A stretch of 63,798 nt of DNA from Pseudomonadota bacterium. Its GTDB lineage: Bacteria; Desulfobacterota; Binatia; Bin18. This document shows positions 6,798 through 63,654 of the stretch, piece after piece (within the stretch, counting starts at the first letter, position 1; each line of letters begins with the position of its first letter). A model generated the notes under the pieces. The model worked only from the letters and a program-made list of their open reading frames with translations. It did no database searches and was not told the origin of the DNA. The stretch is taken from assembly GCA_005804965.1 (NCBI GenBank), contig SYOC01000222.1:1-63798 (forward strand), in the 5' to 3' direction. The position numbers were made by a program, and so were the translations under genes.

Positions 6798-7108
6798 GTG
6801 GTGGGTTAATGCGAGATTTTGTTCGCTCTTTCCACGAAGCTGCGGTCGCGGCCCTTTCTGACAGGAAGGAACGCATTGATCTTGTGATTGCTCAAAAGGT
6901 CATGAACCAACATCGCGAAGCGCGCAATCTGGAACTCGACTTAAAACATCGGGAGGCCCTGCGCACGGTGCTAGAGCATGGATTTCTGACAGGACGGCAG
7001 CGTGAGGTCGAAGAAGCACTATTGCGGAGCACCTATTTGTTGGTCTACAGCGATGAAAGTAGTGGCTCGTGGTTCGATGCCCACCCCGAGGTCTTGCCGC
7101 TTCTTTAA
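6776..7108 (+). CDS. C-terminal (lid-like) part of the same NTPase, in the -1 frame
   Basis: Read from 6770, this frame gives DALDLLARMSGGLMRDFVRSF, a typical AAA-type lid motif that continues ...GEVITP of the upstream ORF. Confidence 0.55.
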   Translation: MDLLARMSGGLMRDFVRSFHEAAVAALSDRKERIDLVIAQKVMNQHREARNLELDLKHREALRTVLEHGFLTGRQREVEEALLRSTYLLVYSDESSGSWFDAHPEVLPLL

Positions 7109-7122
7109 CGTGTTGAGCGTGT

Positions 7123-9729: not shown

Positions 9730-9730
9730 A

Positions 9731-9768
9731 CTGGATTCCGGGTCTCGCGTTGCTCGCCCGGAATGACG
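9731..9768. repeat. REP-like palindromic unit
   Basis: ctggattccgggtctcgcgttgctcgcccggaatgacg is the reverse complement of the unit at 33820-33857 and 61166-61203. It lies in a convergent intergenic gap. Confidence 0.6.
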
Positions 9769-9778
9769 CCCTCGCTGT

Positions 9779-11155
9779 TTAGCCCTTATCTCTACTGTCG
9801 CGGTCTACGAACGATGGCTCCCACCGAAAATCCAACACCGTCTCGCACCATTGCCCGGCGGCGATCAATTTATCTTCGCGGAAGGCGGCGCTCATCAGCT
9901 GGAGGCCGAAGGGAAGGCCGTCGGCACTGAGTCCCGAGGGCAGGTTGAGGCTGGGATGACCGCTGAAGCTGGCGGGTCCGTTGAAGGACGGGTCGCCGGT
10001 GGAGCCCAAACCTTTGGGTGCCGGTGCGGGTGTCGATGGCGTCAGCAGCACATCGACAGATTGACAGAGATTTTCCAAGTCGTGGCGAAAGCGTTGCTGG
10101 TGCCGACGCAGGGCGATGTACTCGGCGGTGGAGATGCGCCTTCCTTGTTCGATAAGATCCTGCATCTGTGGGCTGTACTGGTCTTTGTGCTGCGCGTAGC
10201 GCTCGGCATGTGAAACCGCAGCCTCGGCATACAGCATCTTGAAATGCGCTTCAGGTTCGCCGACGAAACTCTCCGGCAGTCGTACTTCTTTGATGGTCGC
10301 GCCGGCGCGGGCAAACTGCTCGGCGGCGGCCTCCACGTGTTGGCGAGTCGCAGGAGTTGCCTTCTCCAAGAAGAAATCGCGGACCAAGCCAATGCGTGGC
10401 GGCAAAGGGTGAAACGAAGCCGAGCGGTAGTCAGGTACGGGCAGCGAGGAACAAGCTGGGTCGTGCGGATCATCGCCAGCCAGCGCGAACAACAGAATCG
10501 CTGCGTCGCGTACCGTGCGTGTGAACAGCCCGACGTGATCGAGATTCCAACTCAACGCGAACACCCCGTAGGCACTGACCCGCCCGTAAGTGGGCTTGAG
10601 ACCGACACACCCACAGTAGGCCGCCGGGCGAATGGTAGAGCCGTAGGTCTGCGAGCCCAAAGCAGCCGGGCACATAGATGCTGCCACTGCCGCCGCTGAA
10701 CCGCTGCTCGATCCACCGGGCGTGTGCTCCAGGTTCCAGGGGTTATGTGTGGGCGAGGGTTTGAGGGCGGCGAACTCGGTGGTCTGCGCTTTTCCGAGAA
10801 TGACCGCTCCAGCCTCGCGCAGTTTCTGCACGACGGTCGCATCATAATCCGGCACGAAATCTGCACAGATCGGCGACCCTGCCGTGGTCTTCAGTCCTTT
10901 GGTGTAGAAGATATCTTTCAGCGCGATGGGAATGCCATGCAACGGGCCACAATACTGCCCGTTGCGAATCTCGGCTTCACTCTGACGCGCTGCCGCCATC
11001 GCCCCATCGCGGTCTACCGTCACCCAGGCGTGCAGGCGTGGCTCTAAGCGGTCAATACGCTCCAAGCACGAACGCATCAACTCGACGGGTGAGAGTTGAC
11101 CGGCTCGCAATTGTTCGGCGGCGTGGACGATGGATAACGCGGATGGTGCAGTCAT
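9779..11155 (-). CDS. amidase (amidase-signature family, GatA-like)
   Basis: Carries the GGSSSGSAAAVA signature and the KD..YTKGLKTTAGS motif. I place the start at the ATG at 11155 (MTAPSALSIV...). The track start at 11314 would overlap the upstream VOC gene. Confidence 0.85.
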   Translation of the reverse strand: MTAPSALSIVHAAEQLRAGQLSPVELMRSCLERIDRLEPRLHAWVTVDRDGAMAAARQSEAEIRNGQYCGPLHGIPIALKDIFYTKGLKTTAGSPICADFVPDYDATVVQKLREAGAVILGKAQTTEFAALKPSPTHNPWNLEHTPGGSSSGSAAAVAASMCPAALGSQTYGSTIRPAAYCGCVGLKPTYGRVSAYGVFALSWNLDHVGLFTRTVRDAAILLFALAGDDPHDPACSSLPVPDYRSASFHPLPPRIGLVRDFFLEKATPATRQHVEAAAEQFARAGATIKEVRLPESFVGEPEAHFKMLYAEAAVSHAERYAQHKDQYSPQMQDLIEQGRRISTAEYIALRRHQQRFRHDLENLCQSVDVLLTPSTPAPAPKGLGSTGDPSFNGPASFSGHPSLNLPSGLSADGLPFGLQLMSAAFREDKLIAAGQWCETVLDFRWEPSFVDRDSRDKG

Positions 11156-11240
11156 GGTGAGCCTCTGTCCTGAGTCGAATCGGAGAGCCGGTGAATCGGA
11201 GAGCCGGTGATTGGGGAAATTCTTCTCCGATTCAGGTCGC

Positions 11241-11696
11241 TCATTCAACAAGTTCGTCCAATTGGACAAGAATCCCATCGGGATCGACAACGAAGGCGCT
11301 GTTGAAGTTGCCATCAGCTGTCTTGGTGACGCTGGGCGGCACGACGAATTCCACGCCTTTGGCTTTCAGCTCTTCGTACACTCCCGGGAGGTTCTCTACC
11401 CAAAAGGCGAAGTGGTGAATACCAATCTGGTCGAGTTTAATCGCCTCGCCAGAAACCGGCTTGTCGTTATGTTCGGACAGGACGAGAAAAGCTTCTTCCT
11501 TGCCGCGCTTCCAGTACAGCGTCGCGACCCGTCGTTCTTCGTGCGCATCTTTATAGACAGCCGGCAGCACCGTGCCTTTGGTTTTTTGCACTTCGTCGCG
11601 CACGACCTGGAAGCCCAATTGGTCGCGGTAGAACGCGAGCGACTTGTCCATGCTGCGCACGCCAATCGCAATGTGAGAAACACCTTTAGTAATCAT
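11241..11696 (-). CDS. VOC-family (glyoxalase/bleomycin-resistance/dioxygenase) protein
   Basis: 151 aa with GVSHIAIGVRSMDKSLAFYRDQLGF and IGIHHFAFWVENL. Confidence 0.85.
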   Translation of the reverse strand: MITKGVSHIAIGVRSMDKSLAFYRDQLGFQVVRDEVQKTKGTVLPAVYKDAHEERRVATLYWKRGKEEAFLVLSEHNDKPVSGEAIKLDQIGIHHFAFWVENLPGVYEELKAKGVEFVVPPSVTKTADGNFNSAFVVDPDGILVQLDELVE

Positions 11697-11724
11697 TTGA
11701 GGACCCTCCTTTTGTTCTGTTCTT

Positions 11725-13050
11725 TCAAGATGATGCTTCCTGAACCGTGAGCGGTGACACCGTACTAGCTTCCCTCGCCAGCTTTGCCGCTCTGCTACGT
11801 TTCTCGTGGCCTCGGATCGGGATCTGCATTAATGCACCCAAGGCGGCGCTGACTCCGAGAGCAACGAATCCCCAGAAAAACGAGCCGGTTTGGTCGAACA
11901 AATACCCGAGCAGTAGCGGTCCGAGCACGCCGCCAAGCCCGCCACAGAACCCTCCGGCAATGCCAATCGCCGCGCCAAATAGGTGGCCGGGAATCAAATC
12001 AAAAACCAACACCGCAAATCCATTCACCGCTGCCGAGTTCAGAAACAGCGCCACGCTCATCAGGAGAATCGTCACTTCCACTCCGGCGTTTTGCGCCAGA
12101 CCTAAAAGTGCGGGAAACGTCAGCAAACCCGCGAACAAAGAGACGAGGCTACGGTTGCCAAAGCGGTCGCCGATGCTACCGCCAACCAGCATGCCAGCAA
12201 AGGCAGCGAGATAGGGGATCGTTAAATAGACACCACTATTCAAGATGGTGAAGCCACGTTCTTTGACCAGATATCCCGGCAACCAACTCATGGCAGTGAA
12301 ATAGACAAAGGTATTGAAGAACCCCGCGATACATAAAAACCAGAACACGCGCATCCGCGCCAACGCCGCCAGACGTTCACGCAACGGCATCGTCGTCGCC
12401 TCCTGCCCATGCAGTTCAGACGCCACTTGTCCTTGCGCGAGACCTTCACGAAAGCGGATTTTTTCTTCTGACGAGAGCCAGGGGTGCTCATGCGGATGAT
12501 CTCGCACGAACACCGAGAAGAGGACGACTTGGATCAGTGTGAGCGCCCCTACCGCCACAAACATCCAGCGCCAGTCCCATAGGGCGATCAGCCAGCCAAC
12601 GAACGGCATGCCAAACGCAATGCCTAAATAGGCGAACCCGATGAAAATGCCATAGGCTTTGCCGCGTTCGGCGGGCAGTAGCCAGTTATTCTGCAATTTA
12701 TGCGTCATATTGACGGTGGCACCTTCGGAAATGCCAAAGAGCAGACGGACGAGTACGAACTGCCACATGGCGGAGCAGGCTCCGGTCAAGGCCGTGAGCA
12801 CACTCCAGAGAAGGATCATCCAGGAATTCAGACTGCGGAGTCTGAGCTGGTCGCTGACCAAGCCGCTCGACACATGCCCAAGCAGATAGCCCCAGTAATA
12901 GATGCTGAGCACGAACCCCATTTGCGTGCCGTCAAACTGTAACTCATCCATGATGCGCGGCGCGGCTAAGGAAATGTTCACGCGGTCGAGCACCAGAAAA
13001 AAGGACCCAATCCACAGCACCCCCATGACGAGCAGACGAACGCCTTGCAT
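11725..13050 (-). CDS. MFS transporter
   Basis: About 12 TM segments with an MFS-like layout. The ATG at 13050 is directly preceded by AGGAGGAAGC. Confidence 0.85.
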   Translation of the reverse strand: MQGVRLLVMGVLWIGSFFLVLDRVNISLAAPRIMDELQFDGTQMGFVLSIYYWGYLLGHVSSGLVSDQLRLRSLNSWMILLWSVLTALTGACSAMWQFVLVRLLFGISEGATVNMTHKLQNNWLLPAERGKAYGIFIGFAYLGIAFGMPFVGWLIALWDWRWMFVAVGALTLIQVVLFSVFVRDHPHEHPWLSSEEKIRFREGLAQGQVASELHGQEATTMPLRERLAALARMRVFWFLCIAGFFNTFVYFTAMSWLPGYLVKERGFTILNSGVYLTIPYLAAFAGMLVGGSIGDRFGNRSLVSLFAGLLTFPALLGLAQNAGVEVTILLMSVALFLNSAAVNGFAVLVFDLIPGHLFGAAIGIAGGFCGGLGGVLGPLLLGYLFDQTGSFFWGFVALGVSAALGALMQIPIRGHEKRSRAAKLAREASTVSPLTVQEASS

Positions 13051-13208
13051 GCTTCCTCCTTTTGGTGTGGGGATTATCATGCGCAAGCCAGACCCGTGTC
13101 AATGGCAAGTCGCTCCCAAGTCGCTCCGTTAAACAGTTTGCGGACTTGACGACGGGTGGACGCTCACGCCATGCTGCACTGACGTGACTTTTGAAGGAGA
13201 CTCAGCAC

Positions 13209-14999
13209 ATGGACATCGCCGGGCACAAAGCCGAAGGCATTCAATGGAACCTCAACGAACTCTATGCCGGGACAGACGACCCACGTCTCGAAACCGACCT
13301 CGCCGAAGCCAAACGACAAGCTGAGGTGTTTGCCGCCCAATATCGCGGCAAGGTTGCCAGCGGCACGCTAGACGGGCATGCGCTGGCCGGCATCTTGGCG
13401 GAATATGAAGCGCTGGCCGAGCTGGAGCATCGGCCTTCGTTTTATGCGTCGCTGCTCTTCGCTGGCGATACGCAAAACCCTAAAGCCCAACGCCTCGCGC
13501 AACGCACCCGCGAAGCCGCGACGGAGATTGGCAATCTCTTGGTGTTCTTCTCGCTGGAGTTGATTGGCCTCGACGACCACTATACTGCCACGCTGCTAGC
13601 GGCACCGGAGATGGACCGCTACCGACACTACGTCGAAGCTGTGCGTCGCTTTAAGCCTTACACACTCAGCGAGCGCGAAGAGCAGCTGTTGAATCAAAAA
13701 GATCTCACCAGCAGCAGCGCGTTTCAGCAGCTCTACGAAGAGCTGACCGGTTCGCTCCGTTTTACCCTGACCATTGATGGAGAAGCCAAAGAGATGACCG
13801 ACGGCGAAGTGATGGCGTTGCTGCGTCATCCCGATCAAGGGCTACGCGAGCACGCTTTTACTACCTTTCTGGAAACGCATGCCAAGCATTCTCTCGTACT
13901 CACGTCGATCTTCAACAACATCTTCCTCGATCACAAGATCGACTGCGAGATGCGCCAGTATCCAGACGTGACGTTGCCGACGCACCTGTCGAACGAAATC
14001 GCACCAGAGACGGTCGAAGCTATGATGCAGGCCGTCGAGCGCCATTATCCACTCGCTCAGGAATATTTTCAGCTTAAAGCGCAGCTCTTGGGCGTTGAGA
14101 AGCTGAAGAATACCGATCTCTACGCGCCGATTGAAGCAGAAGTTGAGCAGGTAACTTTCCCTGAGGCGCAGGACCTGATTCTCACCGCTTTTGGTAGTTT
14201 CAACGAACAGTTTGCCGCACTCGCCGCCGACTTCTTCGACAAGCGATGGATCGATGCCGAAGTGCGGCCAGGGAAGCGGGGCGGTGCTTTTTGCGCGGCA
14301 CTGTCGCCGCATCACCATCCCTACGTGCTGTGTAGTTTCAACGGCACCGGGCGTGATGTTTCGACCATCGCTCACGAACTCGGCCATGGGATTCATTACT
14401 CGCTGGCGCGGCGTCAGACCTTGCTGAATTACGATGCCCCGCTGGTTTTGGCGGAAACCGCCTCGGTGTTTGCCGAAATCGTGTTGACCCGGCACCTGCT
14501 GGCTCGTGCGAAAAGTCCGGCGGCGCGGCGCGGCATTTTGTGTGAAACCATTGAGGAAATGTACGGCACGGTGTTTCGTCAGACTGCGCTGACACGCTTC
14601 GAGATGGCTGCGCATCAGCAACGGCGCGACGGGCAGTTATCCGCCGACGACATCGCCGCACTGTGGCTGCAAGAACAAGAGAAGGTGTTCGGCCCCAGTG
14701 TGGATATGATCCCCGCCTATCGCTGGGGGTGGACGTACATCGGTCATTTCATCCACAGTCGCTTCTACTGTTACTCTTACTCTTTCGGCGAGCTGCTGAC
14801 GCTGGCGTTGTATCAGCGCTATCTCGATGAAGGCGAGGCGTTCGTTCCCGGGTATCTTCGCCTGTTAGAAAGCGGCGGCTCGCAACGCCCTGAAGTCGCC
14901 CTTGCGCAGATTGGTATCGACATTAACCAGCCCGAGTTTTGGGATCGCGGGTTTCGGGTGATTGCCGGGCTGCTCGAGGATCTACGGGCGACGTTGTGA
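13209..14999 (+). CDS. pepF: M3-family oligoendopeptidase F
   Basis: Carries the HELGHGIH zinc motif and has PepF-like length. The ATG at 13209 follows GAAGGAGA. Confidence 0.85.
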   Translation: MDIAGHKAEGIQWNLNELYAGTDDPRLETDLAEAKRQAEVFAAQYRGKVASGTLDGHALAGILAEYEALAELEHRPSFYASLLFAGDTQNPKAQRLAQRTREAATEIGNLLVFFSLELIGLDDHYTATLLAAPEMDRYRHYVEAVRRFKPYTLSEREEQLLNQKDLTSSSAFQQLYEELTGSLRFTLTIDGEAKEMTDGEVMALLRHPDQGLREHAFTTFLETHAKHSLVLTSIFNNIFLDHKIDCEMRQYPDVTLPTHLSNEIAPETVEAMMQAVERHYPLAQEYFQLKAQLLGVEKLKNTDLYAPIEAEVEQVTFPEAQDLILTAFGSFNEQFAALAADFFDKRWIDAEVRPGKRGGAFCAALSPHHHPYVLCSFNGTGRDVSTIAHELGHGIHYSLARRQTLLNYDAPLVLAETASVFAEIVLTRHLLARAKSPAARRGILCETIEEMYGTVFRQTALTRFEMAAHQQRRDGQLSADDIAALWLQEQEKVFGPSVDMIPAYRWGWTYIGHFIHSRFYCYSYSFGELLTLALYQRYLDEGEAFVPGYLRLLESGGSQRPEVALAQIGIDINQPEFWDRGFRVIAGLLEDLRATL

Positions 15000-37471: not shown

Positions 37472-38095
37472 ATGGTTGCTGTTCCTTCGCAAATTCCCGT
37501 GCCTCCCAGCGAAAACATCGGCGTGTCGATTGACTATCTCTGGCGTTGCAGCGTCGAGCAGTACCACGCCATGATCCAAGCCGGCATCCTCACTGAGGAT
37601 GACCCGGTCGAACTGCTCGAAGGATGGGTGGTCACGAAAATGCCAAAGAACCCAAGACATAGTGCGGTGACGCATATCATCCAGGGGACTTTTGCTCGCA
37701 TCTTGCCCACAGACTGGCATGCGCGAGTGCAAGAGCCGATCACGACAATAACGAGCGAACCCGAACCAGACGTGGTCATTGCCCGAGGGAACTTGCGCCA
37801 GTATTTCGACCGCCACCCCGGCCCTCAAGATCTGGCACTGGTTGTCGAAGTCGCGGATTCGTCATTACGGCGCGACCGTATGTTGAAGAAGCGGCTCTAC
37901 GCTGCTGCTGGCATCCCGGTGTACTGGGTGGTGAATCTCACCGACGCTTGCATCGAAAGCTACAGCGAGCCTTCCGGCGCAGCGGAACAGCCCGACTATC
38001 GGCGTCAGCAGGTATACAGCTTGGCAGAAGAGATTGCGGTCACGCTTGACGGCAAAGAAGTCGCCCGCCTCTCCGTGCAGGAATTGCTGACCTGA
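37472..38095 (+). CDS. Uma2-family (DUF820) PD-(D/E)xK endonuclease
   Basis: Carries VELLEGWVVTKMPKNPRH, PEPDVVI and LVVEVADSSLRRDR..K..YA.AGIPVYWVVNL. Confidence 0.85.
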   Translation: MVAVPSQIPVPPSENIGVSIDYLWRCSVEQYHAMIQAGILTEDDPVELLEGWVVTKMPKNPRHSAVTHIIQGTFARILPTDWHARVQEPITTITSEPEPDVVIARGNLRQYFDRHPGPQDLALVVEVADSSLRRDRMLKKRLYAAAGIPVYWVVNLTDACIESYSEPSGAAEQPDYRRQQVYSLAEEIAVTLDGKEVARLSVQELLT

Positions 38096-38179: not shown

Positions 38180-38260
38180 GGTGGAGAAGCAGAATGTCTA
38201 CGGCTCGGTGGAGAAGCAGAATGTCTACGGCTCGGTGGAGAAGCAGAATGTCTACGGCTC
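38180..38260. repeat. perfect tandem repeat, 3 x 27 bp
   Basis: GGTGGAGAAGCAGAATGTCTACGGCTC occurs three times with no mismatch and no spacers. The rightmost copy supplies the last codons and the TAG of the 132-aa ORF on the minus strand. Confidence 0.95.
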
Positions 38261-38650
38261 GGCTCTAGCAAGAAGAGAGATCGGTTGGTCTTCCAGGATC
38301 GTGCGCACGTGATCCGAGGCGGCCAAAGCAGAGATGCCGGCAAGTGTCGTTTCGACTGGGATACTACCTAGAGCATTTACGTCAGCCAGTCTTTTTCCGC
38401 CGAAGCGTTCGAGAATACGGTCGATAGCGTCGAGTGCCTGACCGGAAGATTGACGAATAAGCGTGATGGCTTCCTGGCGAGCATGTCGTGAGCGCACTCT
38501 CTCGGCAGCGGATTGCAGTCCTCCATGCGATTGCAAGAGAAGAATGGCGCGGATTTTTTGCCCCGATTTGAGGCGTCCGAGTCGGGCGGCAAATTCCTGG
38601 CTGATCTTCGACTGCGGAGCAGTCACAATTCCACGCGACATGTCGGTCAC
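38252..38650 (-). CDS. free-standing subtilase pro-domain (I9-inhibitor-like) protein
   Basis: 132 aa with no signal peptide. SIPVETTLAGISALAASDHVRTILEDQPISLL aligns by eye with IAKVEVTSKTLTTLAEQPNVIAILPNQKIQLL at the end of the N-terminal extension of the adjacent S8 protease. It starts 18 nt after the S8 stop. Confidence 0.5.
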   Translation of the reverse strand: MTDMSRGIVTAPQSKISQEFAARLGRLKSGQKIRAILLLQSHGGLQSAAERVRSRHARQEAITLIRQSSGQALDAIDRILERFGGKRLADVNALGSIPVETTLAGISALAASDHVRTILEDQPISLLARAEP

Positions 38651-38668
38651 TATACGCTTCTCTCTTCC

Positions 38669-40024
38669 TCATGAAAGAGCTTTGAGCGCTTCGAGTGGGC
38701 GGATGGCACCGTATCCCCAGCGATTATCGGGGCGGCGTTCATTGCCTGCTGGATGCTTGGCTGTCTCTTTCATCGCTTGCATGATTGCACTGACTGGAGC
38801 CTCCGGTTTTGCTGCCATCAACAACGCAGCAACCCCGGCAGCATGCGGCGTCGCCATCGAAGTACCGTCCATGTAGGTATACTCGAAGACGGAGCCGCCA
38901 TTTTTTTCGGGAGGAATACAGGAAAAAACTTGTACCCCAGGCGCGACAACGTCCGGCTTTGTGACTAACGCAGGTTCGGACCCGGGAAAGGCGAGACTTG
39001 CACCACTGCTGAAAGAAGCTACCGTCGTTTTTCCGCCGCTAACTTTTTCTAGTGCTCCGATGGAGAAAGCATTGTGAGCATTGCCGGGGGAACTGGTATT
39101 GCCGTGGTTTTCGTTACCAATGGCCACGACGGGTAAGATGCCGTACTGATCGAAAAGAACGGCAAACACCTCGGCGAAGAGCGGTTCATAATGAGGAAAG
39201 CCAAGGGACATGCTAATAATGTCCGCCCCTTTTTCGACCGCCCAAGACAAACCTTCCATGAGCGTCTGAACAGTTGCATCTCCGATGAGCACCCCGGCGA
39301 CTAGGAGGGCGGCTTCTGGCGCAACACCAATCGCCACCCCTTGGTCTGTCGTTCCTCCGGCGATAGTGCCGCAGACATGCGTGCCATGCTGCCCGCTATC
39401 GAAGGTCGGCGTGGCAGTGATACGCCTGCCCAACGGATCAACAAGGAGAAAATCTTTGACTTTCCCGTTGAGTACAGGGTGTTCGCCGTGGACGCCGGTG
39501 TCGAGGACCGCGACGTTGATGTCTTTTCCCTTCGTCGCCGCCCATAATTCTGGGATACCGAGTTGCTTGAGACCCCAGGTCATTTTGTCTTTTGCCTCTT
39601 GCCTGAGCAACGCGTTGTAGTCCACTGCTTTTGGTTGCAAGAGCTGGATCTTCTGGTTGGGGAGAATCGCGATGACATTGGGTTGCTCGGCCAGGGTTGT
39701 GAGAGTTTTAGATGTGACTTCCACTTTGGCGATGGGCAGCGCGTTATTCCCAATACCGGTTGTAGCGAGTGGTTGGCGAGTGGCGAAATGTTTTGCGCCT
39801 GCCTTTTGATAGTCTTCGAACAGCTTCGCCTGAATGGGCTGCTGGAGAGCGGCTTTTCTTTTGATGGAGTCGAGGCGCTGCTTCAATACACGCAGACGGC
39901 CACGGACTCGAGGCTCTTCGTTGCTTGGTGTACGATAAATCACGATCGCATCGCGCTTGTCGTTAGGGCCGCTGCCCGCGAGAAACGGCGCGAACGCCGG
40001 TGAAATTCTGCTCTCTACAGTCAT
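38669..40024 (-). CDS. S8-family subtilisin-like serine protease, no signal peptide
   Basis: Triad motifs are VAVLDTGV (Asp), HGTHVCGTIAG (His) and GTSMATPHAAG (Ser). There is an N-terminal ~125-aa pro-domain-like extension. The start overlaps the NACHT gene stop (ATGA at 40021-40024). Confidence 0.9.
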   Translation of the reverse strand: MTVESRISPAFAPFLAGSGPNDKRDAIVIYRTPSNEEPRVRGRLRVLKQRLDSIKRKAALQQPIQAKLFEDYQKAGAKHFATRQPLATTGIGNNALPIAKVEVTSKTLTTLAEQPNVIAILPNQKIQLLQPKAVDYNALLRQEAKDKMTWGLKQLGIPELWAATKGKDINVAVLDTGVHGEHPVLNGKVKDFLLVDPLGRRITATPTFDSGQHGTHVCGTIAGGTTDQGVAIGVAPEAALLVAGVLIGDATVQTLMEGLSWAVEKGADIISMSLGFPHYEPLFAEVFAVLFDQYGILPVVAIGNENHGNTSSPGNAHNAFSIGALEKVSGGKTTVASFSSGASLAFPGSEPALVTKPDVVAPGVQVFSCIPPEKNGGSVFEYTYMDGTSMATPHAAGVAALLMAAKPEAPVSAIMQAMKETAKHPAGNERRPDNRWGYGAIRPLEALKALS

Positions 40025-42882
40025 GTTCGGGTCCCTCCGTCATGAACCTTTCGAGTACGTTTTTTGCCGGGAGTTTTCGTTGCCGCTCGCTTGCTTCTCT
40101 CGTTGGCAATTGCTTGCTCCAAGGAATCCGCCCACGAGGTTAGGGCTTGAATAGCGCGGTCTAGCCTTCTGTTACTTGTTCCCTCGGGTTTGTGCTGCCA
40201 GGTTTCGCGCAACCGTTTTGCTAACTCGCGCGTGAGTGAGGCAAATTCTGGCCAAGTCGTCTTGTCGAGAGGAAGTTGGCTTTTGCTGCGGTCTGTAAAA
40301 AACTCAGCCCCATTAAAGTTCCACAGCTTGATAGTATTCTCTTCGATAACAAGAGTACGCAAGATCTGGAGTAAGGCAGCATCAAGACCGGGAGAAACTC
40401 TCAAACCTGTCGATTCTTGACGAGAACGAACAGATCGCTCTGACAGCCCAGCCAACGCAACCAGGGCTTGTGATTCGTAATGCGCCTCATTCGCAAATCG
40501 AGGTCCTGGAGCGGCGTACATTGCGTCGTCGTGAGCAAGAACGGTGAGTTCGATATCCGAGCCGAAAGCATGTAAAAGATGGATTAGCTCTCCGAGCGCA
40601 AATGGGTTTAAGTGGTGCCAATTCTTGGTTCGCTCTGCGATGTTTCTTAGGTTCAATTGGTCTGGGTGGTCCTGTAACCAATGATGAGATTCGCTGATAC
40701 TCAGGTTGCTGTTTATCGTGCCGATTCGCGAATTTGCGATAGGAGCGACTTCTTCAGGGGCAAAACGTACAAGGGAACAGGTTCCATCCTCTGGTGCAAT
40801 GGCAATTCGTTCCAACACCGTCCGACGGAAAGGGGTGTCTTGCGACAACTCAGGACCAGCCGACAGATACGCCTCTGCTAGTACGGCAGCGAGTTCACGG
40901 GAGTCTGGTTGGGCAATCAGTTGCTCGATCATCTCTTTTGCTGCTGGTGTCGAGGCCAAGCCGCAATAGAGGGCAATGACTTCTTTCCAACGACCATCGG
41001 CATGTTCGCGGGCCAAGCGAGCAACGTCACCGCCGAGTCTATTACCTTCGTAAATAGCCCGCGCTGCCAAATACTCCTGAAAGGTGAGGTGGGCGAAGGC
41101 GAAAATTCCTGGGCGACGTTCCAGCAGCAAACCTGTGCGATAGCGAATGTGTTCGAGGAGGAGCTTCGCCCGGGCAGGATCTTGCAACACGAGGGCGAAG
41201 ACTTGCTGCACTTTGTCGGCTTCGTACTCTGCACGGTCTTCAGCCTGCATGGCCAAGGCGACCTCGCGACAAATCCGTAGCTTTTCCTCTAGGGTAAATT
41301 CGGAATGGATACCGCGTCGCTGGTCCCAATGGTGCAATAAACCCTCGACGCACAGTCGATACAGGACGGCCCGATCTTTCGGGAGTTCACCTCCTTCAAA
41401 GTAGTTCACCAAGCAAATGGCCGAGAGCATCAATGGGTTCCGCGCCAAGTTGCGAATATAGGGGTGGGCGCTGAAGCCTTGAACGATCCGCTCCCCATCG
41501 TTAGCGCCTTCGCGACGGGCTTCTTCTTCCGGCTCATTACGAGCAAGGCGGACGGACGTACACCAATGGCGGCAATACTCGCTTATCTCGGCATCGTCGA
41601 AATCTTGCAGGTCACATTCGACAAATCCGGCAGCTGTGAGTGCTCCGGGTGGATATCCGACCGGGCGAGAAGAAATCAGATAGCAGCAATGTGGATATTC
41701 CCGGCAGAGATCGTGGAGCCAGGGGAGAATATAGCGGTCGCGTAAGTCTGGTTCGGTTTCATCAAGGCCGTCGAGCATGAGAAGCACGCGGCCTTCCGCC
41801 ATTTGTCGATCAAGCCAGCCGGGAGGCATGCGGGTGACACGATCTTGGCTGGCCGTTGCCTTCTCGACTAATGCTGCTCCGCGCGGAAGATTGCGAGGAT
41901 CGAGCTGACGAATGCGCAACAGCAACGGGATTGCCTGTTGGCCGGACAGGACGAATTCTTCTTCTCCCGATGCGAGCCGCAGTTGTAACCATTCGAGGAA
42001 CGTGGATTTCCCACTGCCTGGGATGCCCACGATAATGTTGCGGGAGTGGTCTTTCATCTGCTGGAGAGCAGACGTGCCTTCTGGCTTGGCTTTCTCGTTC
42101 TCCGAGGTGCGTCTTGATTCATGAAAGCTGCCAAAAAACTCGCGGGCAACTGCCAGATTCATGAGGGTGTCTGCCTCGGTAGCATTGGTTTTAGGACCTT
42201 TGCTTGTCGGTGGTCGCACGCGTAACCGAGGCGTGACGAAAAGTTCGCGGAGATCAACGTTGAGATTCGTCGTCATCCGTACAGTCCCGGCCTCAATCCG
42301 ATGGAACCGTTGGAGCAGGTAGTCGCGATACGAGAGTTCGTAGCCTCCGTCTGCCGCAGTTTGGCCAGCGTGGCCCAAAGCCGCAAGCTGTTCGCTAATT
42401 TGATTCAGGTTGTTGACGATGCGGTTGGGCAGTTCATAGGTGACCGAGAAGTTCAGCTTTTGCCATTCGGTCATGACCGGACCAACCAGCATCAACACCT
42501 GCATGATGGAATGCAAAGAGAGTCGATAGATTACATCCTGTCCTTCTTGCTGAACCGACGCAGGGCAAGGCAAGTGTTGCAGTAGGGTCTCGACGATAGT
42601 CTCGGGGGCGATATTGGGGTTCGTGATATCGTCCAGCTTGATCCGGGTGGTCAACCCAGCGAATCCAGACAAGAGACGAGCGACTTGCTGCTCAGTGAGC
42701 TGCTCGTTGAGGTAATAGCGAGTAAGCGACTGAGAAGCGGCGTCGGCGGCTCCATCAACTTGACGGAGTACCGCTTTCTGCTTGAGGCGGTCATTGATTC
42801 GTAGCTGGAACGGACGGGAAAAAATGTGATCGAAAAGCCCGGAGTAAAAATCGATGACTTGATCGGCGATTGCAGATGTCAT
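40021..42882 (-). CDS. NACHT-family STAND NTPase with helical N-terminal domain and non-repeat C-terminal domain
   Basis: 953 aa. Walker A is GIPGSGKST (42001-42027) and Walker B is VLLMLDGLDE. The downstream NACHT-like helical region reads NPLMLSAICLV. I recognise no TPR/WD/HEAT/LRR repeats in the last ~330 aa. Confidence 0.85.
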   Translation of the reverse strand: MTSAIADQVIDFYSGLFDHIFSRPFQLRINDRLKQKAVLRQVDGAADAASQSLTRYYLNEQLTEQQVARLLSGFAGLTTRIKLDDITNPNIAPETIVETLLQHLPCPASVQQEGQDVIYRLSLHSIMQVLMLVGPVMTEWQKLNFSVTYELPNRIVNNLNQISEQLAALGHAGQTAADGGYELSYRDYLLQRFHRIEAGTVRMTTNLNVDLRELFVTPRLRVRPPTSKGPKTNATEADTLMNLAVAREFFGSFHESRRTSENEKAKPEGTSALQQMKDHSRNIIVGIPGSGKSTFLEWLQLRLASGEEEFVLSGQQAIPLLLRIRQLDPRNLPRGAALVEKATASQDRVTRMPPGWLDRQMAEGRVLLMLDGLDETEPDLRDRYILPWLHDLCREYPHCCYLISSRPVGYPPGALTAAGFVECDLQDFDDAEISEYCRHWCTSVRLARNEPEEEARREGANDGERIVQGFSAHPYIRNLARNPLMLSAICLVNYFEGGELPKDRAVLYRLCVEGLLHHWDQRRGIHSEFTLEEKLRICREVALAMQAEDRAEYEADKVQQVFALVLQDPARAKLLLEHIRYRTGLLLERRPGIFAFAHLTFQEYLAARAIYEGNRLGGDVARLAREHADGRWKEVIALYCGLASTPAAKEMIEQLIAQPDSRELAAVLAEAYLSAGPELSQDTPFRRTVLERIAIAPEDGTCSLVRFAPEEVAPIANSRIGTINSNLSISESHHWLQDHPDQLNLRNIAERTKNWHHLNPFALGELIHLLHAFGSDIELTVLAHDDAMYAAPGPRFANEAHYESQALVALAGLSERSVRSRQESTGLRVSPGLDAALLQILRTLVIEENTIKLWNFNGAEFFTDRSKSQLPLDKTTWPEFASLTRELAKRLRETWQHKPEGTSNRRLDRAIQALTSWADSLEQAIANERSKRAATKTPGKKRTRKVHDGGTRT

Positions 42883-42888
42883 GCTCAG

Positions 42889-42918
42889 TTTTTAGCGAGG
42901 TTCGGCGCGGAATGTCAA
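42889..42918 (-). promoter_or_regulatory. promoter candidate TTGACA-18 nt-TAAAAA ending 6 nt before the NACHT ATG (leaderless mRNA?)
   Basis: The -35 element is at 42913-42918 and the -10 at 42889-42894, both on the minus strand. There is no Shine-Dalgarno between the -10 and the ATG at 42882. Confidence 0.35.
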
Positions 42919-43038
42919 GAAAAAGGAGAATAGAGTAATGAGGTACGGGTTTCCCCCGGCTCGCGCCGTGGGCTATCATCTAGCACTCCCGAGGAGCAAC
43001 CGGAGCAACGGAGTTTGAGCAGGAAGGAGAACGCATTT

Positions 43039-61445: not shown

Positions 61446-62621
61446 TCAGGGGTCGTGTTTGCGAGGCAAGGTCAGGACAAATTCGCTGCCTTGCTGATGG
61501 AACGTAGGCTCCTGTTGGGTGCGTTGGCGGACGAGGCGAATGATACGAGGAATGCCGCTACCCACATCGGTGACTAAGCCCACGCGCAGTAACATACTGT
61601 AGATCATCGGGTTGCGCAGGACGTGGATGCCAAAGGGAAGGCTTGCTAATGTGACGGTGTTGGGGAGGGTCCCGGGAGTGCGAATCTCGATCCGATCATC
61701 AAAAACCACAAGGCGGATCGGTGCAGAGATGGTATAGTCGCGGTGCGCCAGCGCGTTGACAAGCGCCTCTCTCAAGACTTCTCCTGGCAATTCCGCCGTC
61801 ACCTCGGGTTCCAGACCACGAATGGTGTGAGGACGGCGAAGATGAATGTCGAGAAACCTTTTGGCATCTTCGAGCACGCTCAACAGCCGACCGACAATTT
61901 GTTTCTGATCGGACGGGGCGATACTGATATCGCTGCCGGGAATGCTTACTGCGGAGACGTAAGCCGTCGGCAGCCAGCGCTGGGGCTGCCGCGCGAGAAA
62001 TAACGCTCCGGCCACGGTCAAATACGTCTGCTCTGTACCTCGTGCTAAGAGTTTCCAGTTCACCAACAACTGGTGCGGGTCTATTGTGGCCACATCCAAA
62101 CCGCGCTGCGCTGCTAGTTCGAACACGTCTGATTGCGCTTGGGCTTCGAGATCAAGCGACGAGGTCGCCAGCAGTGGCGTTTCGTCGTAGTAGAGACTCT
62201 CCGTCGCTTGAAATAACCGTAATAGCTCTTCTCGCGAAGCCTGCCGGCGACCCGACGCGGTGCGGATGTAATAGATGCCACGATTCGTGCGATATGGACG
62301 CTGGCTGCCTTTGGGGACTTGGACCACCAGTACGACCCGTCCCTCGTTGTCTTTCACTGTTTCCAGGACCACGGTGGCTGGTGGTTGAATGTTGTGGAAC
62401 GCGACGTTCTCCACGGCTTGCGCTACCCGGTTGCGGTCGGCGTCTGCAATTCCGACGACTTGTCCGGCATCGTCCACTCCTAAAAAGACGTTGCCGCCAT
62501 CGGTATTGGCGAAGGCAGCAATGGCAGTGGCGAGATCGTCCGGGCGCAGTGGCCACTGCTTGAACTCGCTATGCAGGCTTTCTCCTTGCGTAAGCAAGGT
62601 CCTCAGTTCGTCGGGCGTCAT
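61446..62621 (-). CDS. AlbA_2 (Schlafen-like) plus HATPase_c_4 domain protein
   Basis: From the ATG at 62621 it begins MTPDELRTLLTQGESLHSEFKQ...IAAFANTDGGNVFLGVDDAGQVVGI, followed by EALVNALAHRDY. The longer track start would overlap the upstream gene. Confidence 0.75.
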   Translation of the reverse strand: MTPDELRTLLTQGESLHSEFKQWPLRPDDLATAIAAFANTDGGNVFLGVDDAGQVVGIADADRNRVAQAVENVAFHNIQPPATVVLETVKDNEGRVVLVVQVPKGSQRPYRTNRGIYYIRTASGRRQASREELLRLFQATESLYYDETPLLATSSLDLEAQAQSDVFELAAQRGLDVATIDPHQLLVNWKLLARGTEQTYLTVAGALFLARQPQRWLPTAYVSAVSIPGSDISIAPSDQKQIVGRLLSVLEDAKRFLDIHLRRPHTIRGLEPEVTAELPGEVLREALVNALAHRDYTISAPIRLVVFDDRIEIRTPGTLPNTVTLASLPFGIHVLRNPMIYSMLLRVGLVTDVGSGIPRIIRLVRQRTQQEPTFHQQGSEFVLTLPRKHDP

Positions 62622-62658
62622 CTGTTGCTCTGATGTCTCGGAAGGGTTTGTGTACAGC

Positions 62659-63654
62659 TCACGGTTTGCACGCTCGCAAGGTATCCATGACTTGATGTTT
62701 GGCGTTGGCACCGCTGCCGATGGGGAAGATGATGGGTAGTGCGATGCCGGAGTGTCGGTACGCTTCGATGCGTTCGCGACATTGGGCGGGCGTCCCGGCA
62801 ACACCGAGGGCTTCGATAAGCGCGTCGGGCACTAATTTTGCCGCACCTTCACGGTCACCTTTTTGCCACGCCTCACGAATCGCTTGCGCAGCATCTGGAA
62901 ACCCGCTTTCTGCCATGAGGCGGTTGTAGCGTGGGAAAAATCCTGCATAAAACGCTGCCCCTGGGCGCAGGCGCTCGAACGCTTCTTGGCGATTCTCCGA
63001 CATGCTGCATGACAACAACGAAACGATGTCGATATCTTTGGGATTACGGCCAGCTCGCTGCGCACCGGTGGCGATATGCTCAGCGGCTTTGCGTCCCGAT
63101 TCCTGGTTGCTCCACACCATGATCGTCCCTTGGGCGATTTCGCCACAGGTCTCCAGCATTTGCGGAAATACCGCTGAGACATAAATGGGAAACTCGCGCC
63201 GAATCGGTGTGAACCACAAATCGAACCGTTCGAGGTTGATAGTCTCGCCGTGATGCGACGCCACCCCATCGCGCACCAGGGCGCGGATGATGGCCACGGT
63301 GTCTTTGATGCGCTGCACGGGTTTGCCATAGGGAATCCCATGTTCTGGCTCGACTTGCACTTTGTGGCTCGACCCCAGTCCGAGAATCATGCGCTGGTTG
63401 GAAAAGTAATCCACGCAGGCTGCGGCCATGGCGATGGTCGGGGCACTGCGCACGAACACGCTGCTGATGGCGGTGCCCAGCAAAATTTTCTTGGTTTGTA
63501 CGGCGCATGCTGTCAGGATGGAAAACTGATCGCCGCCGTGGCCTTCGACCACCCAGGCTGACTCGTAGCCGAGTTCTTCGGCCAGTTTCACGCAATCGAC
63601 GATCTCTATCGGAGAGAGACCACCGCCGCCTAATGCCACGCCTAATCGCGCCAT
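62659..63654 (-). CDS. LLM-class F420/flavin-dependent oxidoreductase
   Basis: From the ATG at 63654 it begins MARLGVALGGGGLSPIEIVDCVKLAEELGYESAWVVEGHGGD, a typical LLM N-terminus. Confidence 0.85.
   Translation of the reverse strand: MARLGVALGGGGLSPIEIVDCVKLAEELGYESAWVVEGHGGDQFSILTACAVQTKKILLGTAISSVFVRSAPTIAMAAACVDYFSNQRMILGLGSSHKVQVEPEHGIPYGKPVQRIKDTVAIIRALVRDGVASHHGETINLERFDLWFTPIRREFPIYVSAVFPQMLETCGEIAQGTIMVWSNQESGRKAAEHIATGAQRAGRNPKDIDIVSLLSCSMSENRQEAFERLRPGAAFYAGFFPRYNRLMAESGFPDAAQAIREAWQKGDREGAAKLVPDALIEALGVAGTPAQCRERIEAYRHSGIALPIIFPIGSGANAKHQVMDTLRACKP

Follow-up and report, generated by a model that had tools for sequence, protein, structure and literature searches.

A NACHT NTPase, a cytoplasmic subtilase and two copies of the subtilase pro-domain: a candidate sensor-protease-inhibitor module in bacteria

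Known effectors of bacterial NLR-like sensors include nucleases, NADases, pore-formers and proteases of the caspase or trypsin type. In a 63,798-nucleotide stretch of DNA assigned to a Pseudomonadota bacterium (GTDB lineage Desulfobacterota, Binatia, Bin18; contig SYOC01000222.1; the whole stretch is called the window below), the gene of a NACHT NTPase is followed by the gene of a protease of family S8 (a subtilase, referred to as S8) and by a small open reading frame (ORF). Do these three genes constitute one system, and what could be the role of the small protein in it? An initial annotation of the window had proposed that the NACHT protein senses a trigger and unleashes an intracellular subtilase, which is otherwise restrained in cis by its own pro-domain and in trans by the small protein, a free-standing copy of the pro-domain. 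In the computational analysis described here this interpretation was partly supported: the architecture and the testable predictions held, whereas immune function is still conjectural, and trans-inhibition, sensing by the NACHT protein, cell killing and anti-phage activity are treated below as proposals.

The small protein and the protease pro-domain

The three genes were found on the minus strand where the initial annotation had placed them. The NACHT gene (40021-42882) codes for 953 aa, S8 (38669-40024) for 451 aa and the small gene (38252-38650, if read from a GTG) for 132 aa. The stop codon of the NACHT gene overlaps the start codon of S8 in the tetranucleotide ATGA (40021-40024), as had been noted. 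The small ORF was confirmed, its proposed start was not: alignment of homologs and gene callers favored an ATG at 38641, which yields a protein of 129 aa, and because of this later start the gap to S8 is 27 nt instead of 18 nt. No hydrophobic stretch resembling a signal peptide or a transmembrane segment was detected in any of the three proteins.

A parallel between the small protein and the N-terminal extension of S8 had been noted in short sequence stretches. In a pairwise BLASTP comparison the similarity was weak (E 0.28), and it was colinear over 115 residues. A hidden Markov model (HMM) built from 45 small-protein homologs, which were collected by word search, matched end-to-end the first ~130 residues of S8 in nearly all of the 83 loci fetched (E 1e-5 to 1e-10). 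When the family profiles of the small protein and of the S8 pro-domain were compared by hhalign, a probability of 97.7% was obtained (E 2.2e-12, 118 columns); in the controls with reversed profiles the E-values were 0.07-0.47 over 9-24 columns. These sequence comparisons show a homology beyond chance: small protein and S8 pro-domain are true paralogs. The cis copy of the pro-domain extends over residues ~1-130 of S8 (39635-40024, minus strand). The two copies resemble each other best in the C-terminal half (beta3-alpha2-beta4-tail) and share a C-terminal motif, which is AILPNQKIxLIxP in S8 and (A/I)(V/I)LEDQxIxx in the small protein. Past this motif the small proteins stop after 1-38 variable residues (median 8). 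In S8 the motif marks the junction between pro-domain and catalytic domain, where AILPNQKIxLIxP..V.Y is near-invariant in the family, and the strand NVIAILPNQKI was aligned by HMMER with the last pro-domain strand of Bacillus Vpr. In complexes of subtilisin with its propeptide (1SCJ, 1SPB) it is the beta3-alpha2-beta4-tail half of the I9 pro-peptide that contacts the enzyme.

The AlphaFold2 (AF2) model of the small protein (mean pLDDT, the per-residue confidence, 79.5) consists of a helix, a beta strand, a long alpha helix, two beta strands, an alpha helix and a beta strand, with a beta-alpha-beta-beta-alpha-beta open sandwich as its core. In the S8 model the elements of the N-domain follow one another in the same order. 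In a Foldseek search of the PDB the top matches to the small-protein model (3afg, 2z58_B, 3whi, 1scj_B, 1spb_P, 2w2n_P and 1v5i_B; probability 0.93-1.0, TM(target) 0.64-0.77) comprised ProN-Tk-SP, the pro-peptide of Tk-subtilisin, the prosegments of subtilisin E and BPN', the pro-domain of PCSK9 and the free fungal inhibitor POIA1. Because Pfam I9 gives no match, we speak of an I9-type fold, or of a divergent pro-domain family, and not of a Pfam I9 member; the I9-likeness suggested initially was borne out by the fold and not by the Pfam profile. Compared with classical pro-peptides (~70-80 aa), the I9-like domain is larger (~125 aa), carries one more helix at its N-terminus and has a much extended alpha1. 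Searches of Pfam, NCBIfam and PADLOC with the small ORF gave no significant match. The small-protein family forms 473 clusters at 50% identity, and among the best 150 of these almost all members are free-standing proteins of ~105-140 aa, about ten being 154-244 aa long.

The catalytic domain of S8 (residues 166-439, the Pfam envelope; 38708-39529, minus strand) matched Pfam Peptidase_S8 PF00082 with E 3.8e-48. The motifs LDTG (Asp175), HGTHV (His213), GNENH (oxyanion Asn304) and GTSMA (Ser389) were located, and the four residues are invariant among 25 aligned S8 homologs. All 25 begin with the hydrophilic sequence MxxxxKISPAFEPFLA... and none has a signal peptide, in agreement with the initial description of S8 as a cytoplasmic protease with an intact catalytic triad. 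Full-length homologs number over 100, with identities of 66-74%. Nearest to the catalytic domain among solved structures were Vpr (8jmw) and the intracellular serine proteases 7y6m and 7xr8. The 8jmw entry, with its 18 chains, was dropped as a lead, as it represents fibrils of Bacillus Vpr, a generic relative.

The putative sensor has a NACHT P-loop NTPase core at residues 283-441 (41560-42036, minus strand; Pfam PF05729, E 4.7e-17, 62.7 bits against a cut-off of 26.7). The core motifs described earlier are present: Walker A is GIPGSGKS (residues 286-293, with Lys292), and Walker B is LLMLDGLDE, starting at residue 367, in which D371-G-L-D-E375 fits the signature D[GAS]hDE. With NACHT profile, Walker A and Walker B, the protein has the sequence attributes that define the bNACHT clade. 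Its N-terminal helical region (residues ~27-162; 42397-42804, minus strand) gave a weak match to NNH1 (residues 27-162, 21.2 bits, below the Pfam cut-off of 27), and in four of ten orthologs the same region exceeded the threshold (29-36 bits). The variable C-terminal region (residues 621-953; 40024-41022, minus strand), a candidate ligand-sensing part, has ~330 residues in which neither a repeat nor any other Pfam domain was found, as had been stated before, and the sequence of the NACHT protein matched no solved structure in the PDB. Comparison with 18 full-length orthologs that adjoin S8 genes gave identities of 48-64% for the N-domain, 59-69% for the NTPase core and 69-81% for the helical/winged-helix (HD/WH) region, but 26-42% for the C-terminal 330 residues, the last ~140 (after residue ~810) being the least similar. 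In several orthologs the C-terminal region is truncated or absent. This profile of a conserved core and a divergent C-terminus suggests a sensor. PADLOC models gave no significant match to the NACHT protein, only similarities at the level of the P-loop (PDC-S68, 0.0045; AriA; PtuA), and membership in the Avs family was rejected on this ground.

Gene neighborhoods with, without and fused to NACHT

When one-genome-per-species data were searched with S8, up to 477 matches were obtained. The best 80 (58-73% identity) came from Acidobacteriota, Cyanobacteria, Chloroflexota, Planctomycetota, Myxococcota (Polyangium), Methylomirabilota, Actinomycetota, Rhodothermaceae and Methylobacter (Gammaproteobacteria). 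S8 and the small gene were found together in at least eight phyla; the small gene follows S8 in 76-77 of the 83 fetched loci (referred to by numbers with the prefix L), at a median distance of 22 nt. The conserved gene order expected for the triad was also found in other genomes of several phyla, as a homolog of the window-type NACHT gene is located directly upstream of S8 in 33 of the 70 loci that could be judged by the extent of their sequence. In most cases the gap is 24 nt or less, and in 11 loci (the window and ten others) the two genes share the -4 overlap ATGA. Loci with NACHT are scattered across the whole S8 tree.

In the other 37 of the 70 loci NACHT is absent, and some clades lack it as a whole (Blastocatellia, heterocystous cyanobacteria, Anaerolineae). 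The genes upstream of S8 are then unrelated, coding for ABC ATPases, an esterase-TPR protein, an amidase, a transposase or a glycosyltransferase. Intermediate states were also observed. NACHT genes were broken by DDE transposase insertions in L002 (1174-5109) and L008 and by frame splits in L007 and L046, and remnants of 79-184 aa stand beside intact pairs of S8 and small gene in L011 and L019; in L052 S8 is interrupted as well as NACHT. The missing of NACHT at about half of the pairs suggests that it is a facultative and not an obligate controller. The core unit is the pair of S8 and I9-like protein, from which NACHT was repeatedly lost, and the triad is probably a common, old and mobile configuration. 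That the pair is retained where NACHT has been lost or has decayed fits a direct relation between protease and inhibitor for which NACHT is not needed.

The only clade without the small gene is formed by Planktothrix/Oscillatoriales, Obscuribacterales and Synechococcales (L073, L074, L075, L077, L080 and L081). In this subclade, a natural 'inhibitor-less' variant, S8 is ~59-61% identical to the window protein, NACHT is absent too, and a divergent gene for a transporter of the major facilitator superfamily is adjacent. Another local peculiarity was seen in 20 NACHT-less loci of heterocystous cyanobacteria (e.g. L027 5782-6588, L033, L034, L044 and L061), where a conserved protein of ~240-285 aa is encoded 250-700 nt upstream of S8. 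It is restricted to this clade (Scytonema, Calothrix, Brasilonema, Rhizonema, Iningainema) and has a helical N-terminal part, one or two hydrophobic segments and a coiled-coil-like C-terminal part, with spurious Pfam coiled-coil matches only. It could be a membrane partner, a substrate or mere clade synteny.

The closest tie between the three components was found in a second arrangement, in which an I9-like domain is fused to the N-terminus of a NACHT protein. In L059, a contig of an uncultured bacterium, a window-type S8 with a free small gene (7001-8764, plus strand) is accompanied by a divergent S8 gene and, after it, a gene for a 761-aa fusion of an I9-like domain, NACHT and NCH2 (9708-13280, minus strand); the two types of system are ~1 kb apart (~5 kb end-to-end for S8a). 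The 761-aa protein belongs to a large cyanobacterial family of NACHT proteins with NCH2. Taken alone, its N-terminus was only weakly similar to the small protein in a single-sequence hhalign comparison (E 0.003). A profile of 35 fusion N-domains (~140-150 aa) aligned end-to-end with the small-protein profile (probability 85%, E 6e-6, 121 colinear columns). The alignment with the S8 pro-domain profile was weaker and likewise colinear, and reversed-profile controls were negative.

In every evaluable member of the fusion class (L059; L084 from Nostoc; L085/86 and the syntenic L137/138, Dolichospermum-like; L087/88; L089; L135/136 from Scytonema hofmannii) an S8 gene of 381-408 aa is located directly upstream, overlapping the fusion gene or within ~290 nt of it; in L087/88 the C-terminus of S8 with its GTSMATP motif is preserved at the contig end. 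A family member without the I9-like N-domain (P0241) has no S8 neighbor. No free small gene was found at any of the fusion loci. Since the S8 protein of the fusion class retains a pro-domain of its own, with the motif ILxDQPIELIQP, there are two I9-like copies per protease in both classes. By sequence, both classes share one component, which occurs in two alternative forms: as a free I9-like protein or as an I9-like domain fused to NACHT. The fusion, together with the constant S8 neighbor, ties NACHT, I9-like domain and protease into one functional unit, and among the sequence data this class is the strongest evidence that the three act together.

Proposed protease control by pro-domain copies and competing explanations

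On balance, we lean towards the view that the locus encodes a self-contained, horizontally mobile module in which a cytoplasmic subtilase is silenced by two I9-type pro-domain copies and controlled by a NACHT NTPase. S8 would be made as a cytoplasmic zymogen, fold with its cis pro-domain and process itself at the conserved ...NQKIxL(I/L)/xPK junction (the slash marks the cut); in the window protein the cut is predicted to follow ...IQLL, at residues ~126-129. The free I9-like protein, with its C-terminal ...EDQxIxx, would occupy the same surface and the substrate cleft of the mature enzyme; being co-translated, this paralog would re-cap mature S8 and serve as a tight trans-inhibitor, a safety catch resembling an antitoxin. 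Binding of a trigger to the variable C-terminus of the NACHT protein would be followed by NTP-dependent oligomerization, and the oligomer might either crowd the S8-I9 complexes, leading to mutual degradation of the inhibitors in trans, or pull I9 off. The resulting burst of cytoplasmic proteolysis would arrest or kill the cell. In fusion-class systems the sensor would itself contain the cap, inhibitor and coupler at once. Several steps have precedents in the biochemistry of subtilases. Their pro-domains fold the enzyme and remain bound after autocatalytic cleavage, with the C-terminal tail in the active site, and the degradation of the pro-domain is the slow, autocatalytic and rate-limiting step of activation. 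Free I9-type proteins such as POIA1, yeast PBI2 and the Plasmodium SUB1 pro-peptide-like protein are tight inhibitors. The biological role would most likely be conflict or abortive infection, by analogy with other bacterial NACHT proteins; this is the weakest step of the proposal.

We also consider, more tentatively, a wider hypothesis: it is possible that the I9 fold was co-opted as a coupler between NLR-type sensor and protease, either free or fused to NACHT, which holds the subtilase silent and hands its control over to NACHT, and that this constitutes a gasdermin-independent immune or cell-death system in at least eight phyla. If this were true, the I9 coupler would do the work that CARD does in caspase recruitment, with a protease inhibitor as its building block where CARD systems use a death-fold.

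A number of observations weigh against the proposed module. As to the inhibitor, Pfam I9 did not match the small protein or the N-terminus of S8 at E <= 1, and when the PDB was searched with profiles of the small protein and of the S8 pro-domain, no match reached significance. The E-values of the Foldseek matches were modest (4e-3 to 0.1), and ACT-like and S6 structures were also matched, the ferredoxin-like alpha/beta fold being common. Binding of the small protein to the S8 catalytic domain is predicted from homology and fold; the AF2 model of full-length S8 was poor (mean pLDDT 54, shallow alignment), and docking of the cis pro-domain was not visible in it. NNH1 is unrelated to the I9-like domain (hhalign E 0.2-0.4), a difficulty for any contact of an I9-less NACHT protein with the S8-I9 pair. 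As to immune function, NACHT is absent at the 37 loci mentioned above, and S8 is, by its sequence, unusually conserved for a defense effector. The enrichment of defense genes near the triad that had been anticipated was found neither in the window nor at 32 other loci. Among the genes flanking the 32 NACHT-positive loci about 5 of 112 matched PADLOC models at 1e-10, without a pattern (one DRT-like, one UvrD/GajB-like, one type IIG restriction enzyme, mad3 and PDC-S17), and the flanks are mostly housekeeping genes. No family member was found on IMG/VR viral contigs (best identity 38%) or on PLSDB plasmids.

The loci without NACHT, the missing defense-island context and the high conservation of S8 also favor another explanation, according to which the S8-I9 pair is autonomous. 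It would then serve either for addiction, in the manner of a toxin and its antitoxin, or as an intracellular protease under regulation (in proteostasis, stationary phase or development), comparable to the Bacillus intracellular subtilisin (ISP) with its inhibitor or to yeast proteinase B with PBI2; NACHT would be a facultative add-on, and there would be no immune function. Intracellular serine proteases are indeed among the closest solved relatives, the hosts are mostly bacteria with large genomes and complex development, the flanks are of the housekeeping type, and NACHT is often split, truncated or a remnant where S8 and the small gene are intact, apart from being absent in whole clades. In contrast, where NACHT is present it is translationally coupled to S8, as in the 11 loci with the -4 overlap, and it is conserved together with S8 across phyla at 50-80% identity. 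Like accessory and unlike housekeeping genes, the family has a patchy distribution that does not follow taxonomy, and the independent joining of an I9-like domain to NACHT in the fusion class would be hard to explain if the two were unconnected. We judge the autonomous pair unlikely as a full account of the locus.

The fusion class can be read in yet another way, since it places the domain on both partners, the classical arrangement of homotypic adaptors. The I9-like fold could be a recruitment domain like CARD, acting by I9-I9 or I9-NNH1 contacts, and the free small protein a competitive decoy which sets the threshold without inhibiting the active site. The parts for such a device are all present in the window, namely an N-domain on the protease, the helical N-domain (putative NNH1) on the NACHT protein and a free copy of the protease N-domain. 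There are precedents: the N-terminal adaptor of a CARD-NLR protease contacts the helical N-domain of the ATPase (PMC13236601), and a free CARD-like phage protein blocks a CARD-NLR system (10.1101/2023.05.28.542683). Yet the small protein is kept at nearly all NACHT-less loci, where a decoy for NACHT would have no function, and the half of the domain that is best conserved is the half that binds the enzyme in known pro-peptide complexes. Self-association of I9 domains is, to our knowledge, not known. As S8-I9 pairs persist without NACHT, the I9-like protein is expected to act on the protease and not on NACHT, and for this reason inhibition was ranked above recruitment or decoy activity, which we regard as rather improbable.

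Subtilase pro-peptides act both as chaperones and as inhibitors, and isolated subtilisin pro-peptides aid folding in vitro. With its I9-type fold, its homology to the cis pro-domain and its tight co-translation with S8, the small protein might thus be an intermolecular foldase of the catalytic domain, a positive factor and not a brake. We find this very improbable: a second foldase would be redundant because S8 keeps a full-length, conserved cis pro-domain, the Oscillatoriales clade manages without the small gene, and a foldase tethered to the sensor, as in the fusion class, makes little sense. That an ordinary exported or unrelated protease adjoins a NACHT gene and a hypothetical ORF by chance can hardly be upheld, for although S8 proteases are usually secreted and JGI annotates the relatives as 'AprX' or 'subtilisin family serine protease', the aligned members have no signal peptide, the adjacency and the gene overlap recur across many phyla, and the pro-domain of the protease itself has its paralog in the 'hypothetical ORF'.

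To return to the NACHT-controlled, doubly capped subtilase, its fused and unfused forms can be regarded as a natural experiment on how NACHT oligomerization is converted into proteolysis. If the model is correct, the module would represent a second, independent way to silence a lethal cytoplasmic protease and to release it on command, by duplication of the pro-domain of the protease, with the copy left free or joined to the sensor. The S8-I9 pair that occurs independently of NACHT may itself be a new toxin-antitoxin-like pair. In the literature that was searched (NACHT-subtilase and bNACHT-protease topics and a 2026 STAND survey) no description of the triad or of an I9-NACHT fusion was found, and a subtilase arm with its own zymogen logic under an NLR-type sensor is undescribed there. 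Because the system has only three genes in 4.6 kb, lends itself to clear mutations (K292A, S389A, loss of the small gene) and has orthologs in cultivable hosts (Polyangium, Nostoc, Scytonema, Calothrix and Phormidium), the hypothesis is directly testable.

Flanking sequence and relation to known systems

A perfect tandem repeat of 27 bp in 3.1 copies (38180-38262, minus strand; TRF), seen already in the initial annotation, adjoins the triad. The repeat, GAGCCGTAGACATTCTGCTTCTCCACC when read on the minus strand, opens within the final codons of the small gene and overlaps its stop, and every unit re-creates the end of the gene, GAG-CCG-TAG. Three exact copies are present in the window (0 expected), whereas the ENA assembly (L001 9765-9818) shows this locus with only two, which makes the copy number of the repeat variable. 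It is absent from every other locus fetched. A lower GC content of the locus had also been claimed; this did not hold, as the value of 0.546 compares with 0.565 +/- 0.014 in windows of the same size, 6% of which are lower, and the dip is marginal and inside normal variation. On the other side, upstream of the NACHT gene, lies a divergent intergenic region of 132 nt (42883-43014), read directly from the sequence. The divergent arrangement was confirmed, and TTGACA (42913-42918) was found 18 nt upstream of TAAAAA (42889-42894) ahead of the NACHT gene; a consensus scan did not call the promoter that had been postulated. TAAAAA ends 6 nt before the NACHT ATG, so that transcripts of the operon, if they started from such a promoter, would have little or no leader.

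The neighbors of the triad in the window are, on one side, genes for a SnoaL-like protein, a cold-shock protein, HtrA, agmatine deiminase and N-carbamoylputrescine amidase, and on the other side Uma2, a member of the F420H2-dependent quinone reductase family (Pfam F420H2_quin_red), an ExeA-like ATPase and MinCDE. At >=90% identity, the MinD protein falls into one cluster with that of a metagenome-assembled genome labelled 'Deltaproteobacteria bacterium'. The Uma2-family gene (restriction-endonuclease-like; 37472-38095, plus strand), which the initial annotation had correctly placed, adjoins the triad. Another Uma2 gene (L084 9984-10565) lies 2.5 kb from the fusion-type S8-NACHT pair of Nostoc; because Uma2 genes are abundant, their presence near both types of system is probably a coincidence. 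Pfam DUF2887 occurs once in the window, and a DUF2887 gene adjoins the fusion-type NACHT in L087/L088. The segment 34002-36933 (minus strand), which has the highest GC content (0.629) and the highest GC skew (0.21) of the window, encodes the 676-aa ExeA-like AAA ATPase with a peptidoglycan-binding C-terminus, overlapping by 47 nt with a gene for an extremely proline-rich protein of 315 aa.

PADLOC matches occur elsewhere in the window, and none adjoins the triad. Two paralogous AAA_14 + DUF4143 ATPases matched the candidate PDC-S01 (best 1.4e-55), and one protein matched a model of type II nicking endonucleases (2.6e-37); neither is beside the triad. A 452-aa protein (61449-62804, minus strand), ~19 kb from the triad, gave partial matches to pAgo (1e-19) and to Aga SIR2-PNTD, which probably reflect a common nuclease-like N-terminal domain and not an Argonaute. 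Among the few clear defense neighbors at other loci is a gene like Type ISP restriction enzymes (Eco57I / Type_ISP_C) in an Aminicenantes genome (CP070627; L003 9807-11135), 46 nt past the small gene.

No fourth gene recurs at the 32 NACHT-positive loci. No match to bGSDM was found there and no gasdermin in the window, as the initial annotation had stated for gasdermins and other substrates. VWA matches and downstream genes of ~1.4 kb were rejected as a fourth component, being lineage-specific (e.g. xseA in Pyrinomonadaceae), and so was the upstream ORF of ~240-285 aa, confined as it is to heterocystous cyanobacteria.

Among known systems, bNACHT proteins are anti-phage and have the signature D[GAS]hDE, and the bNACHT01 clade has a 'rapidly diversifying' C-terminus (Kibby et al., 10.1101/2022.07.19.500537). 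The NACHT protein of the window resembles them in its D[GAS]hDE Walker B, its putative NNH1-type N-domain and its non-repeat, poorly conserved C-terminus. In bNACHT proteins the effectors are mostly fused N-terminal domains, and the peptidases named among them are of the caspase, trypsin, transglutaminase-like and SMT4 types, with no subtilases (10.1101/2022.07.19.500537). In contrast, the putative effector of the window is a separate, translationally coupled S8 gene with a separate inhibitor-like gene.

Operons of an NLR-like ATPase and a protease defend against phage or lyse cells (10.1101/2023.05.28.542683; PMC13236601). These CARD-NLR systems include gasdermin-type operons of Lysobacter, Pedobacter and Azospirillum (10.1101/2023.05.28.542683) and LypABC of Caulobacter (PMC13236601); their over-activation is toxic. 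As in the window, an ATPase with a helical N-domain and a protease with an N-terminal non-catalytic domain are encoded in one operon. In the CARD-NLR systems the logic runs from sensor to protease to cell death or lysis, and the N-terminal domain of the protease is needed for coupling. The proteases there are trypsin-like, whereas here an S8 enzyme is found; the accessory domain is an all-alpha death-fold CARD there and an alpha/beta I9-type domain here, of which a free copy is also encoded; and a dedicated effector gene (gasdermin, phospholipase/nuclease) is present there, whereas no fourth gene recurs here. Fungal HET-Q2-like S8 proteases and NLR-S8 fusions control the gasdermin HET-Q1 (PMC8851545). 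They share with the window locus a cytoplasmic, signal-less protease of the subtilisin family linked to an NLR-type protein. HET-Q2 has no I9 pro-peptide and is clustered with its gasdermin (PMC8851545), whereas here there are two I9-like copies, no gasdermin and a separate NLR gene.

Another NTPase gene beside an S8 protease gene is found in IetAS, which the initial annotation had named as an analogy. Membership was rejected: S8 scored 43.8 bits against a cut-off of 900 for IetS (NCBIfam NF042956), the PADLOC matches to IetS were partial (8.9e-12) and confined to the generic catalytic core, and the NACHT protein gave no PADLOC match to IetA at E <= 1, which leaves S8 without an IetA-like partner. 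IetS is also larger (~750-800 aa), and the partner here is a NACHT STAND NTPase. The ISP enzymes of Bacillus, which are among the closest solved relatives (7y6m, 7xr8), are likewise cytoplasmic subtilisins with an inhibitory N-terminal segment. In ISP this segment is a short peptide instead of a folded I9 domain (PMC6220982), and the reported ISP inhibitor IPI has an Ig-like fold (PMC3901451); there is no NACHT partner.

The I9 pro-peptides of subtilases have the same fold as the small protein by Foldseek, and one copy is N-terminal to the catalytic domain, as in S8. A stand-alone paralog encoded separately is shared with POIA1 and with the SUB1 pro-peptide-like inhibitor of Plasmodium (PMC6993865). 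Unlike in the classical cases, all components are cytoplasmic here, the free copy is in an operon with the enzyme and a NACHT NTPase, and a NACHT-fused version exists. Overall, the locus is similar to systems in which an NLR-type sensor is combined with a protease effector, and its distinctive feature is the duplicated subtilase pro-domain, which is either free or fused to the sensor.

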